From assembly GCA_012512325.1 (NCBI GenBank), contig JAAZEL010000069.1, forward strand, positions 1,303 through 65,302: DNA of 64,000 nucleotides. The letters run 5' to 3'. This DNA comes from Candidatus Fermentithermobacillaceae bacterium (GTDB taxonomy: Bacteria; Bacillota; Sulfobacillia; Fermentithermobacillales; Fermentithermobacillaceae). The stretch's first letter is position 1, and each line of letters starts with the position of its first letter. A model generated the notes under the pieces. That model did not search any database and was not told the DNA's origin. It saw only the letters and a program-made list of their open reading frames with translations. Below are positions 2,021 to 32,871 of this stretch, one piece after another. The position numbers and the translations under genes were made by a program.

Positions 2021-2387
2021 GTTAACACCTCACCGGTTCATTCGGATGTCAGCTGGTTTATGCTCATTTGACCGGGATGGAAAGCCCGGCATCCACTAGT
2101 ATATTCTATCATCCGCGCCCAATCTCTCAACGCGTCCCGACGAGCGTCCAGCAACCGCCTCAACCGCGCGTTGTCCGTGGAGGACCGATTTGTGATGAAT
2201 CGCGTTGACAATTCTGGGGATAAGTGCCAGGCCCTGTGGATAAATTTGGAATGGCGCCCGCCCGAAATGGTAAAATTTGCAACGGAGACGGAAGCCGGAA
2301 TACCAAGGCCCTCGCTGTTGTTGTAAGATAGAGTTAGGTAGGGGAGATAAAACGGCCTGGGAAACTGGTACGAGGAGCGGACACCTT

Positions 2388-3950
2388 ATGGACAAAGTCG
2401 CCGATGGTATTATTCAGAGCATCGCTTATTACATAGGGCAGGATCCTGTGAGGATGCACATGCCCGGGCACAAGGGGCGCCTCAGGCGGAAACAGGGCGA
2501 AGGCCGGCCCCAAGGCGGGGATGAGGCCGCTTCGCACATGTCAGGCCTGGTACTGGATGCGTTAGACGCCGTCAAACCCCTGGATGTTACCGAAGTACCG
2601 GGATTGGACAATCTCCACTATCCAAGCGGCCCGATCAAAGCCGTGCAGGATGCCATGGCGGACACCTTCGGCACTGCGGCTACTTACTGCCTGATCAACG
2701 GGGCCACTGCCGGGATACTTGCATCCCTCATAGCTGTGAGGATGACCATGGGGCCCGGTATGGTGGTAGTTCCCCGGAATGCCCACCGCTCAATAATCTC
2801 AGGGCTTATCCTGTCAGGTTTGGAACCCTTGTTCGTTTATCCTGAATATGACAGCCGTTTTGGCGGATATCTGCCTCTTAAGGTTTCCGACGTACAAGCC
2901 CAACTTGAAAAGGCTGCCTCCGAGGGACGGCGGGATATGGCCGGAGAGGGAAGGTTATGCGGCGTGGTGGTGGTAAACCCCACTTTTACAGGGGTGTGCA
3001 GGGACATTACTGAAATATGCGAGTACGCCGACGGATTGGGTGTTCCCGTGATTGTGGATGAGGCCCATGGAACCTTGTTTGCCTTGTCAGAGAGACTGCC
3101 TCGTTCAGCCATTGAAGCAGGAGCCGCCCTTGTGGTCCACGGTGTCCACAAGACCACAGAAGCTCTTACACAAACGGGCCTGCTCCATGTGACTCCCAAG
3201 TGCGTCGCGAGCTTTCCGGCGCTGGCTGTCAATGTGGCAGAAGCCCTGAGGCTGGTTCAGTCTACCTCACCTTCGTACATACTGCTTGCATCTTTGGAAA
3301 GGGCAATACGAAGTCACAAACATGATGAAACCTGGGTTGAATCAATGATACAATCAGCACACCTGATCAAGGGTGCATTATCCGGGTTCAGGGGAATCAG
3401 CGTAAGGGTTCCCCAAGGGGCGGGCTGGGACCCTGTAAAGATCTTGGTTGACGTATCCGGGTTGGGTTTGTCCGGACCACGGGTCCAGGAGTTGCTGTGG
3501 GATGAGGCAAGGGTTGTCCCGGAAATGGCCGGCCCGGACCACGTCTTGTTGATGGTCACAGGAGCCGATACTTCAGACAGTGTGGAAAAGCTGGTTAAGG
3601 CGTTCCGCCGCATATCAGACGGGTGCTTGGGACTGGAACGGCCTGGCAGTGCAGGTTTGTGCAGCGAGTTGCTTACCCGCGAACCGCCAAGGGCGGAGAG
3701 GGCGATGCCTCTCTCTCGGGCGTTTTACTCCGGAAGCAAGGATTACTCTCTCGAAGAATCGGTGGGCAGGGTGAGTTGCGATACGGTGATGATCTATCCG
3801 CCGGGGTCTCCTGTGGTGGTTCCGGGAGAGAAGATAACCGCAGAAATAGCCGGGTATCTCCGGGCAGCGGTAGAGTGTGGCCTCCAAGTGCTGGGACGCG
3901 GGTACGCCTGCGGTGGGGAGGAGTTGAGAGTGTTTTGCCTGGAACAATAG
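2388..3950 (+). CDS. Orn/Lys/Arg decarboxylase family protein (YaaO-like)
   Basis: HMPGHKG motif near the N-terminus, a hallmark of B. subtilis-type YaaO/SpeA-like PLP decarboxylases. The gene precedes tmk as yaaO does in B. subtilis. Start taken at MDKVADG (AGGAG RBS); the ORF track extends to 2277. Confidence 0.75.
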   Translation: MDKVADGIIQSIAYYIGQDPVRMHMPGHKGRLRRKQGEGRPQGGDEAASHMSGLVLDALDAVKPLDVTEVPGLDNLHYPSGPIKAVQDAMADTFGTAATYCLINGATAGILASLIAVRMTMGPGMVVVPRNAHRSIISGLILSGLEPLFVYPEYDSRFGGYLPLKVSDVQAQLEKAASEGRRDMAGEGRLCGVVVVNPTFTGVCRDITEICEYADGLGVPVIVDEAHGTLFALSERLPRSAIEAGAALVVHGVHKTTEALTQTGLLHVTPKCVASFPALAVNVAEALRLVQSTSPSYILLASLERAIRSHKHDETWVESMIQSAHLIKGALSGFRGISVRVPQGAGWDPVKILVDVSGLGLSGPRVQELLWDEARVVPEMAGPDHVLLMVTGADTSDSVEKLVKAFRRISDGCLGLERPGSAGLCSELLTREPPRAERAMPLSRAFYSGSKDYSLEESVGRVSCDTVMIYPPGSPVVVPGEKITAEIAGYLRAAVECGLQVLGRGYACGGEELRVFCLEQ

Positions 3951-4627
3951 GGACAGGGTTTCCCGGGGTATTCATAAGCCTTGAAGGATGCGACGGGTCC
4001 GGTAAGTCCACCCAGATGGCAAGGTTGTCGAGGAGGCTTGAGTCATTGGGCCTAAGCCCTGTGATAACCAGGGAGCCGGGAGGGACTCCCTTCGGGGAGA
4101 GGATCAGGCAGCTGCTCTTGGATCCGGACAGCCCTGACAGGTCCATCTTGTCCGAAACCTTGTTGTACGCTGCGGCCAGATGTGAATTTGTCTCGAAAAT
4201 CGTAAGGCCTGCTTTAGCCGAGGGGCGCATAGTCATTACTGAGAGATATGCCGATTCAACCTGGGTGTACCAAGGGTATGCAGGAGGGGTGCCCCTTTCG
4301 ACCATAGAAACCCTCAACGCAATCGCCACAGGCGGCTTGGAACCCGACCTGACTTTAGTGCTTGATATAGGTGAAGAGCGTGTTGTCAATGAGCGGCTTG
4401 CTACCAAGCGGAAAGACAAGATTGAACGCAGAAGCGGCGAGTACCATCAAAAGGTAAGGGAAGGGTACAGGCAACTTGCCAGACGGTATCCCCACCGTGT
4501 GGCATACGTAGACGGCGGTTTGGATGTACATTCCGTCGAGGCTATAATTTGGCAAGAGGTTGTCAACATTTTGTCTAAGAAGGGGTATGATCTGACTGAC
4601 GAGAAACGAGGGAGGGAAAGCCTGTGA
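3935..4627 (+). CDS. tmk: thymidylate kinase
   Basis: P-loop FISLEGCDGSGKSTQ and DRY-like ERYADS motifs. Putative TTG start overlaps the yaaO-like stop; the 5' end is uncertain (ORF track opens at 3623). Confidence 0.8.
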   Translation: MPGTIGTGFPGVFISLEGCDGSGKSTQMARLSRRLESLGLSPVITREPGGTPFGERIRQLLLDPDSPDRSILSETLLYAAARCEFVSKIVRPALAEGRIVITERYADSTWVYQGYAGGVPLSTIETLNAIATGGLEPDLTLVLDIGEERVVNERLATKRKDKIERRSGEYHQKVREGYRQLARRYPHRVAYVDGGLDVHSVEAIIWQEVVNILSKKGYDLTDEKRGRESL

Positions 4628-29953: not shown

Positions 29954-30244
29954 TTACCGGTCTTCTCCATCCTTTATGGGAATGTACTGCACTTCCCCGG
30001 GCATAACCAGCCCGAGCTTCTCTCTTGCGGCCTTCTCTATATACTCTTCGCTGCCCAGGGTTTGTGCTTGCTCTTCCAGTGCACTGTTCAACATCATGTA
30101 GTACTCTATCTCGGATTCCAGCTGCGCAAGCCGGTTCCTGACCCGTATCACTTCAACTTGTCTGACGGCAAAGGTTATGGCAATCAACCCAATAAACGCC
30201 CATATCAAGTTGAGGTTGGTTTTGCGTTGCCTTCTACCCCTCAT
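29954..30244 (-). CDS. divIC: septum-formation initiator (DivIC/FtsB family)
   Basis: N-terminal TM helix (LIWAFIGLIAITFAV) followed by a coiled coil. Opposite strand to yabO, unlike B. subtilis. Confidence 0.7.
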   Translation of the reverse strand: MRGRRQRKTNLNLIWAFIGLIAITFAVRQVEVIRVRNRLAQLESEIEYYMMLNSALEEQAQTLGSEEYIEKAAREKLGLVMPGEVQYIPIKDGEDR

Positions 30245-30477
30245 GGCTGTTCCTCCTCTGTGCCATCTCCACCGAACAGGTTCAAGGGATCGCCTGAAAT
30301 CACAATGACTACCTGATAGCCCTTTTGTTTCGCCCTATTGTACAGAGTTGCTACGGTGGACTGGCTAAGGCCTAGCCGCTCCGCTATGGCTTGGGCTGAA
30401 TAACCTGTTTCTTTGAGGACTACTACTTGTCTTTCCCTGAAACTCAGCCTTTCGGCTCCTCGGATCTCGATTTGCAC
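30241..30477 (-). CDS. small GerE/LuxR-type (sigma-70 region-4-like) HTH protein
   Basis: LSFRERQVVVLKETGYSAQAIAERLGLSQSTVATLYNRAKQKG HTH; GTG start with AGGGGA RBS. Lies between yabQ and divIC, with DnaA boxes in its promoter. Confidence 0.55.
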   Translation of the reverse strand: MQIEIRGAERLSFRERQVVVLKETGYSAQAIAERLGLSQSTVATLYNRAKQKGYQVVIVISGDPLNLFGGDGTEEEQP

Positions 30478-30492
30478 AGCTTATCCCCTGGG

Positions 30493-30524
30493 TTATCCAC
30501 AAGTTATGCACAGATTGTGGACAA
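30493..30524. promoter_or_regulatory. DnaA-box cluster: TTATCCACA (30493-30501, perfect), TTATGCACA (30504-30512), inverted TTGTCCACA (30524..30516), plus a weaker TTATCCCCT at 30481-30489
   Basis: Read directly. The boxes overlap the putative -10 (TAAATT, minus strand, 30529..30524; -35 TTGACG 30551..30546) and the leader of the small HTH gene. Confidence 0.6.
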
Positions 30525-30627
30525 ATTTAGTACAACCTTATTCTACGTCAATATCGGAATTCCTGCACGGGATATAAGCTTAGCTGGATAATTTCAAGCA
30601 TGCGGTGGGTCAATCGGGGATGCCCCT

Positions 30628-31068
30628 TTATTGGCGGTTGTCCCCGTTTTCGGGGGGAGGTTTTGGCAGTATAGCGGTTACCAACAGCCTGATTTTCTGA
30701 TTGAAGGAGCTCATTGCTGATGTGAGGCAGCGTTTGGCCCTGGCGATTCCGTTCACGGTATGTCTGGCGCATGTGAATGCCAGGCCGTAAACGATGTTTC
30801 CTACCAAAGCGTTGGCGAAAAGGAACCCCATGGCAAGAGCGATGACGATGTATAGCCGGACTTCCCCGTAATTGATCAGGAGTACTGCACCTGCTATGGC
30901 AGTTAGCACTACCACCGCTACCAGCCCGTCCAGGACGTGGCCGGTGAGCTTTGCCGGGGAAGTGGCAGCCCTAAGGGCGGTATAAACCTGGAACGTTAGA
31001 CTGCAGAGAATCCCCATGAGAAAAAGCACGGCCAGCCGCCACACCTGTACGTCTACAGAAGGGTGCAT
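30628..31068 (-). CDS. yabQ: YabQ-like sporulation membrane protein
   Basis: 146 aa with four TM helices, directly downstream of yabP on the same strand (3-nt gap), matching the yabP-yabQ arrangement. Confidence 0.6.
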   Translation of the reverse strand: MHPSVDVQVWRLAVLFLMGILCSLTFQVYTALRAATSPAKLTGHVLDGLVAVVVLTAIAGAVLLINYGEVRLYIVIALAMGFLFANALVGNIVYGLAFTCARHTVNGIARAKRCLTSAMSSFNQKIRLLVTAILPKPPPENGDNRQ

Positions 31069-31070
31069 AA

Positions 31071-31361
31071 TTAACGGAAGATCCTCTGCAACAGACTGCC
31101 TTCCCGGCGCCTGGCCCCCCGGTCAAGGGACGAGTATTCCAGGGAAAACAGCATGCCTTCCAGGATCATCTGTCCCTTTTCCAAGTCCAGGGCGGTGATG
31201 TGGAATTCCTCCCCCATGAGCGCCAGGGTCCCCATTTCAGTTTCGACCACTACTTGCCTTTCATCGAAACTCTCTACGTGGAGCACTCCCGTTAGCCGGA
31301 CTGACTCCCTCTGGAAGATCTCGACCTTGTGGGTGCCTTGCTCAACTGGGTATTGATCCAA
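31071..31361 (-). CDS. yabP: sporulation protein YabP
   Basis: HKVEIFQRESVRLTGVLHVESFDERQVVVETEMGTLALMGEEFHITALDLEKGQMILEGMLFSLEY aligns with the B. subtilis YabP domain. Start placed at in-frame TTG 31361 with GGAGGTG RBS; the ORF track extends to 31466. Confidence 0.75.
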   Translation of the reverse strand: MDQYPVEQGTHKVEIFQRESVRLTGVLHVESFDERQVVVETEMGTLALMGEEFHITALDLEKGQMILEGMLFSLEYSSLDRGARRREGSLLQRIFR

Positions 31362-31459
31362 ACTGAGCACCTCCGGAACAAAGCTATGCGGCCGATCTAG
31401 TATCCTAAATATGCGTGGCCCAGTAATATATGACATGTGAGGGGAGCGGATTGCCGTGC

Positions 31460-31489
31460 TTGACACTGAAAATATGCATAACCTATAAT
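31460..31489 (+). promoter_or_regulatory. consensus sigma-A promoter for yabR (-35 TTGACA 31460-31465, 18-nt spacer, -10 TATAAT 31484-31489)
   Basis: Read directly: cTTGACActgaaaatatgcataaccTATAATcag. Confidence 0.55.
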
Positions 31490-32172: not shown

Positions 32173-32871
32173 GTGATGTGGTGCATATGCTGTTGTGACG
32201 CTTACGCCTACCGGAACCACGCCCGGATGAATGAGGTGACTTTCTCTGTGAGGACCCTGGAAGATGAACTGTGGGTGTACTTCGGTTGCCCCAACAGATA
32301 CTGGCGGGACAAGTGCGCAGCTTGCCGGGAAAAGGTCGGGAGACTCAAGGGGCCTGTCGCCGAGTGCATCGATTGTTGGAAGGTTGAAATATGGGGCCAG
32401 AGTCCGTGGCTCCTGGATGCCATGGGCTCTCATGATAGTCCGCGTGGGAGTGCCCACCATGGCAGGTGCAAGAACCACCGCCACCTGCCTCAAAGGGCCG
32501 GCAGTGCATGCATTGAGGAGCTTCTTGGGGAGTCACTGTATCCCGAAGGCATGCCTGTCGGGCTGGGCGTTCTACACCGGTTGGCTTTGCAGCTCGCCCT
32601 GAGACAGGGTTATGCTTTCGTGGCCAAGCTGTCTAAACACCCTTTGCATGTTGTCCGTACGGGGGAGCCTTTGACCCAATATCCGGAGCAGGAAACGGAC
32701 AACCTACTTATGATTTATGCGTCTTCAGTCCCGGAAAGGGACGAGATCCGGCAGGCGGTATGCCATATCCTGGGGTTAGAGCTGCGGCGGGCGGCGGACA
32801 TCCCTGTGCGCCGTGGATGTTGGGTGTATGATCCGATCCTGGGCCCCTGGCAGACCTGGAAGGTAGAATAG
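32173..32871 (+). CDS. hypothetical Cys-rich protein (possible zinc-ribbon N-terminus)
   Basis: 232-aa ORF with GGAGAG RBS. Cys pairs appear in CPNRYWRDKCAAC...CIDC. Not recognised as any family I know; coding status moderate. Confidence 0.4.
   Translation: MMWCICCCDAYAYRNHARMNEVTFSVRTLEDELWVYFGCPNRYWRDKCAACREKVGRLKGPVAECIDCWKVEIWGQSPWLLDAMGSHDSPRGSAHHGRCKNHRHLPQRAGSACIEELLGESLYPEGMPVGLGVLHRLALQLALRQGYAFVAKLSKHPLHVVRTGEPLTQYPEQETDNLLMIYASSVPERDEIRQAVCHILGLELRRAADIPVRRGCWVYDPILGPWQTWKVE

Follow-up and report, generated by a model that had tools for sequence, protein, structure and literature searches.

A stretch of 64,000 nucleotides from a Candidatus Fermentithermobacillaceae bacterium (contig JAAZEL010000069.1; the whole stretch is called the window here) carries a row of DnaA boxes directly upstream of a small helix-turn-helix (HTH) gene, which is followed by the division gene divIC. 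We believe that this row is a DnaA operator array, made of a strong anchor box and weaker phased sites, that would repress HTH-divIC when DnaA-ATP is high, and we put the probability of this reading at roughly 0.7. An initial annotation of the same DNA had proposed direct DnaA control of the small regulator, and that interpretation is supported by the sequence comparisons presented below. From the same comparisons we infer that DnaA binds the array, in which nucleotide form it would do so, the sign of the regulation and its physiological role.

The HTH gene (30241-30477, minus strand) encodes 78 amino acids from a GTG start codon behind the ribosome-binding site AGGGGA. Direct reading of the sequence at 30481-30524 confirmed the four clustered motifs that had been described next to it: a perfect box TTATCCACA without mismatches (30493-30501, plus strand), TTATGCACA with one mismatch (30504-30512, plus strand), the inverted box TTGTCCACA with one mismatch (30516-30524, minus strand) and the weak box TTATCCCCT with two (30481-30489, plus strand). 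Together they take up 44 bp, the nearest end lying 4 nt before the GTG (30477) of the open reading frame (ORF), and as a DnaA-box cluster they comprise a consensus box plus further boxes of at most one mismatch within tens of bp. On the gene strand the same DNA reads as an 11-bp register, TGTACTAAATT TGTCCACAATC TGTGCATAACT TGTGGATAACC, in which each unit is a 9-mer with a 2-bp spacer and the units are numbered -11, -22 and -33 from the anchor. The anchor TGTGGATAACC (30491-30501, minus strand) equals the perfect plus-strand box TTATCCACA; unit -11, TGTGCATAACT (30502-30512, minus strand), equals the plus-strand box TTATGCACA; unit -22, TGTCCACAATC (30513-30523, minus strand), holds the inverted box TTGTCCACA; and the promoter-proximal unit -33, TGTACTAAATT (30524-30534, minus strand), lies at the predicted start site and is the sole copy of its sequence in the window. 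Mismatches to the DnaA consensus rise away from the anchor (0, 1, 1 or 3, and 4), the alternative values for unit -22 reflecting the orientation in which it is read: TTGTCCACAA is nearly palindromic, and the unit is either an inverted box with one mismatch or a direct box with three. All four boxes had been placed upstream of the ribosome-binding site. This holds for three of them, while the fourth coincides with the Shine-Dalgarno sequence AGGGGATAA (AGGGGA; 30481-30489, minus strand), which doubles as the weak DnaA-like box TTATCCCCT and lies one base off the register. The stretch GGGGATAA was found again in several distant loci, and because of the coincidence with the Shine-Dalgarno sequence the fourth box may be conserved for that reason alone.

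Such an arrangement is not expected by chance, as had been argued in the initial annotation. Boxes with at most one mismatch number 22 in the window, compared with 11.6 +/- 3.7 in shuffled sequences, and only two boxes in its 64 kb are perfect. For three of 22 randomly placed sites to fall inside 32 bp the probability is about 0.001, and the phased pattern TGTNNANA-N3-TGTNNANA-N3-TGTNNANA was encountered a single time in the window and never in 100 shuffles. In 80 orthologous loci, the density of boxes with at most one mismatch in the 120 nt preceding the gene exceeds that in the remaining 584 kb by a factor of 75, and for perfect boxes the factor is 259.

Those 80 species-level orthologous loci came from a scan of a genome collection and, with the window, make a set of 81 that covers Fermentithermobacillaceae, Limnochordales, Sulfobacillus, Thermaerobacter, Symbiobacteriaceae, Desulforudis, Desulfotomaculia, Carboxydothermus and Phosphitispora. 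No more than 160 nt from the start codon, 63 of the 81 loci have a perfect TGTGGATAA on the gene strand and a further 15 have a copy with one mismatch, which gives 78; in one more locus (L076) the array lies about 230 nt upstream, behind a longer leader. The boxes are thereby kept upstream of the orthologous HTH genes in 79 loci and are degenerate throughout in only two (L057 and L077), so that the lack of conservation in relatives named in the initial annotation as an argument against DnaA control was not found. Counted from the first base of the box, the start codon was most commonly 24 nt away. When the loci were aligned on the anchor, units -11, -22 and -33 all began with TGT, at 78-92% conservation per base. 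In unit -22 the TGT and the CACA were conserved at 86-91% (78 loci), and the fourth base, C or A, was the least conserved, in keeping with the N at this place in TTATNCACA.

Among 12 close relatives that could be aligned, the 9-mers were invariant or nearly so and the spacers of 2-3 nt were free to change. Conserved 9-mers with free spacers are, to judge from this alignment, the footprint of a protein that contacts the 9-mers one helical turn apart. The TTGTACTA of unit -33 was also invariant among these relatives. In other lineages the array extends to five or six units, one such row being TGTCCTCA, TGTCCTCA, TGTCCACA, TGTCCACA, TGTGGATAA, and the units have lineage-specific variants (TGTACACA versus TGTCCACA); one locus (L053) carries, at about 3925-3960, three exact tandem copies of the promoter-proximal unit TGTAC(T/A)AA(A/T)TT. 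Most lineages have the HTH gene placed between yabQ and divIC. In Limnochordales-type loci it stands alone in an unrelated neighbourhood that lacks both yabQ and divIC, and the array is retained there. Since the array stays with the gene after the gene has left yabQ and divIC, it belongs to the HTH gene.

The position of the array with respect to the promoter gives an indication of how it might act. In the 12 aligned Fermentithermobacillaceae loci we found an invariant AGGA (30561-30564, minus strand), which resembles the -35 element of a SigH-type promoter, and a near-invariant -10 element TAGAAT (30540-30545, minus strand) that includes GAAT (30540-30543), the spacing from AGGA to GAAT being 17 nt. 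The SigH motif consists of a -35 AGGA and a -10 GAAT with a spacer of 17-18 nt (PMC12456013). These elements form part of a conserved block 5' of the array, GCAGGAATT-N11-GTAGAATAA, and 5' of the conserved GCAGGA nothing could be aligned among the 12 close relatives. A relaxed AGGA-N17-GAAT was found upstream of the gene in 24 of the 81 loci, compared with 0.023 expected per 200 nt. Most Fermentithermobacillaceae loci have TAGAAT or TAAAAT about 68 nt before the start codon, and Sulfobacillus loci have TATAAT at a similar place instead. A sigma-70-like TTGACG-16-TAAATT is also present in the window, its -10 abutting the boxes; it was rejected as the main promoter because the closest relatives do not keep its -35. 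The earlier statement that the boxes overlap the -10 therefore has to be corrected: the conserved AGGA-17-GAAT promoter lies further upstream, and the boxes occupy the start-site and leader region. Whichever promoter is used, the array would extend over the predicted start site and some 45 nt of leader behind it, which would be a repressing position. No terminator was found between yabQ and the array.

Six Sulfobacillus-type loci carry an extra DnaA box directly upstream of the TATAAT -10, about 80-95 nt before the HTH start. It is a perfect TGTGGATAAC in L072, has one mismatch in L042 and L048, and is degenerate in L033, L040 and L063. With this box the promoter of these loci is bracketed by boxes on both sides.

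The regulated unit appears to be larger than the HTH gene that had been proposed as the target. The regulator gene itself stands, and its stop codon overlaps the ATG of divIC (ATGA), from which we conclude that the two form an HTH-divIC operon; divIC (septum formation initiator; 29954-30244, minus strand) was identified by Pfam DivIC at 3.4e-13, and the HTH-divIC order is found in most loci. The description of the product as a GerE/LuxR-type HTH agrees with the Pfam matches of the protein, which were above the cut-offs for Sigma70_r4_2 (37.6 bits, cut-off 25.7), GerE (29.0 bits, cut-off 23.5) and Sigma70_r4 (29.0 bits), and with its three-helix HTH fold. An AlphaFold model (predicted local distance difference test score, pLDDT, 86.9) has the order strand-helix-helix-helix-strand, and a fold search returned the DNA-binding domains of SigF/SigD region 4, GerE, NarL and VpsT, on which the helical core superposes at root-mean-square deviations of 0.6-1.0 Å. 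The protein is a free-standing domain of the sigma-70 region 4 or GerE-LuxR type with a beta strand on either side. With 78 residues, of which region 4 alone is matched, it lacks sigma region 2 and does not qualify as a sigma factor. A sequence search of solved structures yielded no close relative, and the structural matches, being only to generic HTH domains, are uninformative on function. Between Fermentithermobacillaceae and homologues as far away as Thermaerobacter, Sulfobacillus and Desulfotomaculales, identity is 70-95%; at 50% identity the family comprises a handful of clusters, the remaining matches being unrelated multi-HTH proteins. Several family members (P0002, P0007 and P0011 among them) are labelled in databases as 'transposase' or 'sigma-70 family RNA polymerase sigma factor', and both names misfit a region-4 domain that stands alone and is encoded in the conserved setting of yabQ and divIC.

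To compare the array with those of replication origins, a metagenome collection was scanned with the pattern TGTNNANA-N3-TGTNNANA-N3-TGTGGATAA, that is, the bare register ending in a consensus box. The scan returned 120 loci, mostly head-to-tail DnaA boxes with 2-bp spacers, of which 16 had dnaA and/or dnaN beside the array and three encoded this HTH protein. Four contigs that lack both the HTH gene and dnaA (L103, L111, L181 and L194) have TGTCCACA-type arrays, and their gene content was uninformative. The origin-side arrays mix strong and weak units, as in TGTGAATAACC TGTTAATAACT TGTGGATAACT and TGTTGATAACT TGTTTACAAGA TGTGGATAAAA; a Bacillus-like contig (L146) has TGTCCACAAGT TGTCCACAGTT TGTGGATAAAA about 195 bp upstream of dnaA, in continuous form TGTCCACAAGTTGTCCACAGTTTGTGGATAA. 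The same contig, with its Bacillus-like oriC, also displays TTGTACA, TTGTACAA and TTGTACAA repeats just before the dnaA ribosome-binding site (1395-1430).

In the oriC of E. coli, low-affinity sites come in fours, 2 bp apart, and are filled cooperatively from R1 and R4 (PMC6070618; PMC4285127). The window array resembles these R1/R4 arrays in that a strong 9-mer ends a row of weaker 9-mers at 2-bp spacing, and it shares with an oriC-type oligomerisation array the high-affinity end box and the weaker sites in an 11-bp register. In addition, ATP-bound DnaA of T. maritima forms head-to-tail oligomers regardless of box direction (PMC10316083), which would answer the objection that TTGTCCACA reads inverted. 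In contrast to origins, the sequence beside the window array, read directly, contains neither an AT-rich unwinding element nor DnaA-trios. An origin or secondary origin was considered and rejected for this reason; trinucleotide repeats and AT-rich tracts are likewise missing, and dnaA and dnaN occur neither nearby nor elsewhere in the window. With a promoter on one side and a GC-rich Shine-Dalgarno sequence and the ORF on the other, the array is better described as an operator than as an origin.

On these grounds the following sequence of events can be proposed. The gene-proximal consensus box TGTGGATAA would be bound tightly by DnaA, and the three weaker 5' units, being in the same register, would be filled cooperatively by DnaA-ATP, so that occupancy would extend toward the transcription start and the -10. 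High DnaA-ATP would then shut off HTH-divIC by blocking promoter escape or elongation, and the block would take in read-through from yabP-yabQ as well. The drop in DnaA-ATP after initiation would free the operon, and the synthesis of a divisome component and a small regulator would in this way be tied to replication status, with a promoter predicted to be active at the transition to stationary phase and sporulation. The sign of the regulation is proposed as repression because of the geometry and of the known role of DnaA as a repressor.

Several observations weigh against this proposal. The orientation of the boxes is not assignable, because TTGTCCACAA is nearly palindromic. In Limnochordales-type loci no promoter was recognised, and the placement of the array downstream of a promoter holds for part of the family. 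The arrays used for the origin comparison belong to unrelated metagenomic contigs and not to the oriC of these lineages. If all units are taken in one orientation, the weak sites would lie on the opposite side of the strong box from those of the E. coli arrays. Finally, the unit TGTAC(T/A)AA is four mismatches off the consensus and is conserved nevertheless, to the point of being triplicated in L053, and a second protein could be involved.

That second protein might be the HTH protein itself. The array would then be its own autoregulatory operator, composed of TGT-N8 direct repeats through which the protein represses its operon, or a site to which both it and DnaA bind; the likeness to DnaA boxes would be fortuitous or a sign that the two proteins compete or cooperate. 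We consider this improbable, although part of the evidence fits it. Autoregulation is common among small regulators, the array accompanies the HTH gene and not its neighbours, and the TGTAC(T/A)AA units are conserved though they are poor DnaA boxes; moreover, the protein and its recognition helix are nearly invariant, and an equally invariant operator would be expected. However, the best-kept unit is identical to the universal DnaA consensus at all nine bases, without a mismatch in 63 of the 81 loci, which is unlikely to be a coincidence, and the same register occurs beside dnaA and dnaN in contigs without a gene for this protein. The usual targets of LuxR/GerE-type domains are inverted repeats, to which they bind as dimers, a mode that does not match four head-to-tail 11-bp units. 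Other copies of the units were absent from the 64-kb window and from 590 kb of related loci, and there was no sign of a regulon.

An array of DnaA boxes may also serve mainly to titrate DnaA, restraining initiation with little effect on the adjoining gene, and the location would suit this role, for the window mirrors the origin-proximal region of B. subtilis. One study of that species describes six DnaA-box clusters outside oriC whose deletion leads to early initiation (PMC3245932). We nevertheless find it quite improbable here, since the boxes hold a fixed position and orientation with respect to the promoter and start codon of one gene across lineages, even after relocation of that gene, which titration alone does not require; furthermore, three or four boxes offer a small capacity. 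The titration and operator roles are compatible with each other.

A different regulator acting on direct repeats, such as a response regulator of the OmpR/WalR type or Spo0A, seems very improbable. Sites of the WalR type (TGTWAH-N5-TGTWAH) have an 11-bp period, and the Spo0A boxes TGTCGAA resemble and overlap DnaA boxes at the B. subtilis oriC. The distal units TGTAAT, TGTAAA, TGTCGTC and TGTCCTC of several lineages and the position of the locus amid sporulation and division genes are in line with such a regulator. The best-kept units are not: TGTGGA, TGTGCA and TGTCCA break the WalR hexamer at positions 4-5 and match the Spo0A heptamer at only 3-4 of 7 positions. Tandem Spo0A boxes have a period of 10 bp, not 11, and neither regulator explains the conservation over the whole DnaA 9-mer, TAA included.

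That the repeats work at the RNA level, by folding of the leader or as UGU-repeat sites for a protein, is hardly credible, and the idea was discarded: the whole array would be transcribed if the predicted promoter is right, and in the window TTGTCCACAA is able to pair with TTGTGGATAA, but the leader folds no better than shuffled sequences (z = -0.62), 15 diverse leaders gave a consensus fold of -1.7 kcal/mol without a compensatory pair, no Rfam family matched, and the pairing partner is gone in Sulfobacillus-type arrays.

DnaA control of HTH-divIC, which we favour over these alternatives, has precedents. DnaA is an established transcription factor with eight known targets in B. subtilis (PMC8203912), and clusters or DnaA-controlled promoters have been described there for dnaA-dnaN, sda, yqeG, ywlC, ywcI/vpr, yydA and trmE (PMC8203912; PMC2533591). 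The window array resembles these clusters in having near-consensus boxes at a promoter outside oriC in the origin-proximal part of a Bacillota chromosome. It differs from them in that HTH-divIC is not among the eight known targets, in that its boxes are in a strict 11-bp register downstream of the promoter, and in that it is kept across several classes instead of one family. The initial annotation had compared the locus to sda, whose promoter is reported to be bound and regulated by DnaA (PMC8203912). The likeness stands as regards the clustered boxes in the control region of a small regulatory gene, and sda is likewise linked to sporulation; it does not extend to the product, which lies outside the Sda family of kinase inhibitors, nor to the repressing geometry. 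Given that the geometry predicts repression and that DnaA regulates sda, we take the sda parallel as an analogy only.

FtsL and DivIC are partners in one complex. Binding of B. subtilis DnaA to the ftsL promoter is attributed to Goranov et al. (2005) in works that cite it (PMC8203912, PMC11019786). In both cases DnaA is reported or predicted to sit at a promoter that serves a small bitopic protein of the divisome; unlike ftsL, divIC is preceded by the HTH gene, and the box architecture is much stronger and more conserved. In Caulobacter crescentus, DnaA acts on gcrA and ftsZ by activation (PMC8203912). Here too DnaA is directed to a downstream transcription regulator and a division gene, but the phylum is unrelated, the regulator belongs to another family and the effect is activation, as opposed to the repression predicted for HTH-divIC. 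In the literature on DnaA together with divIC or yabQ, and on the DnaA regulon in Clostridia, we found no prior description of the array. The comparison suggests that it is probably a new, deeply conserved example of the known class of DnaA-controlled promoters, built as an origin-type phased array.

As for the genomic context, the yabP-yabQ-HTH-divIC setting given in the initial annotation was recovered with Pfam and NCBIfam, all four genes being on the minus strand. The two sporulation genes upstream of the array, identified in the same way, are yabQ (30628-31068, minus strand) and yabP (31071-31466, minus strand). On the plus strand, the block is flanked on one side by a SpoVB/MurJ-like gene, mazG, hbs and a yabO-like gene with an S4 domain, and on the other by yabR (S1 domain) and tRNA-Leu. 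The rest of the window contains a yaaO-like decarboxylase gene, holB, yaaT, rsmI, yabD, yabE and ksgA, a gene order that follows the origin-proximal region of B. subtilis (30-80 kb). The yabP-yabQ-HTH-divIC block (29954-31466) is inverted with respect to mazG-hbs-yabO and yabR in the window and in all Fermentithermobacillaceae loci, while in other lineages it is co-directional with its neighbours. Since the plus strand carries the majority of the genes in the window, the yabP-divIC block is probably transcribed head-on to replication.

Just before the listed start of the yabR ORF (31494), a perfect sigma-70 promoter, TTGACA-18-TATAAT, was found at 31460-31489 (plus strand). From its position, the true start of yabR is probably a downstream ATG, and yabR and yabP would diverge from a very short gap. 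An ORF of 232 amino acids (32173-32871, plus strand) had no Pfam or NCBIfam match and was found again beside yabR in several Fermentithermobacillaceae loci (L003-L006, L008, L015, L016 and L027-L029). The second perfect box TTATCCACA of the window lies at 2235-2243, within a group of boxes at 2215-2243 (minus strand), with TTATCCCCA 20 bp off. This group is located in a 257-bp gap between a divergent HlyD-like gene (374-2020) and the yaaO-like Orn/Lys/Arg decarboxylase gene (2277-3950) that precedes holB, yaaT/PSP1 and rsmI. To judge from its boxes, 2215-2243 could be a second DnaA-controlled promoter.

With regard to the biological meaning of these findings, the conservation of the array over several deeply separated classes of Bacillota is a strong argument for a functional link between DnaA and HTH-divIC, and such a link would bear on how the start of replication is coupled to cell division in bacteria. 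Should the proposed operator act as predicted, it would mean that the origin layout of a strong anchor with phased weak sites has been reused as a transcriptional operator, and with about 100 bp of DNA and two small genes the locus offers a compact test object. A further idea, which we advance tentatively and regard as unlikely on the present sequence data, is that the 78-residue protein may be the output of an ancient, hitherto unrecognised DnaA-gated checkpoint module of spore-forming Bacillota. DnaA-ATP on the array would set the levels of DivIC and of the regulator, and the regulator would in turn reprogramme division or sporulation genes; alternatively, it might act back on the DnaA boxes or on the TGTAC-type units, competing or cooperating with DnaA. 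If true, this module would be a functional counterpart of Sda or GcrA assembled from different parts.

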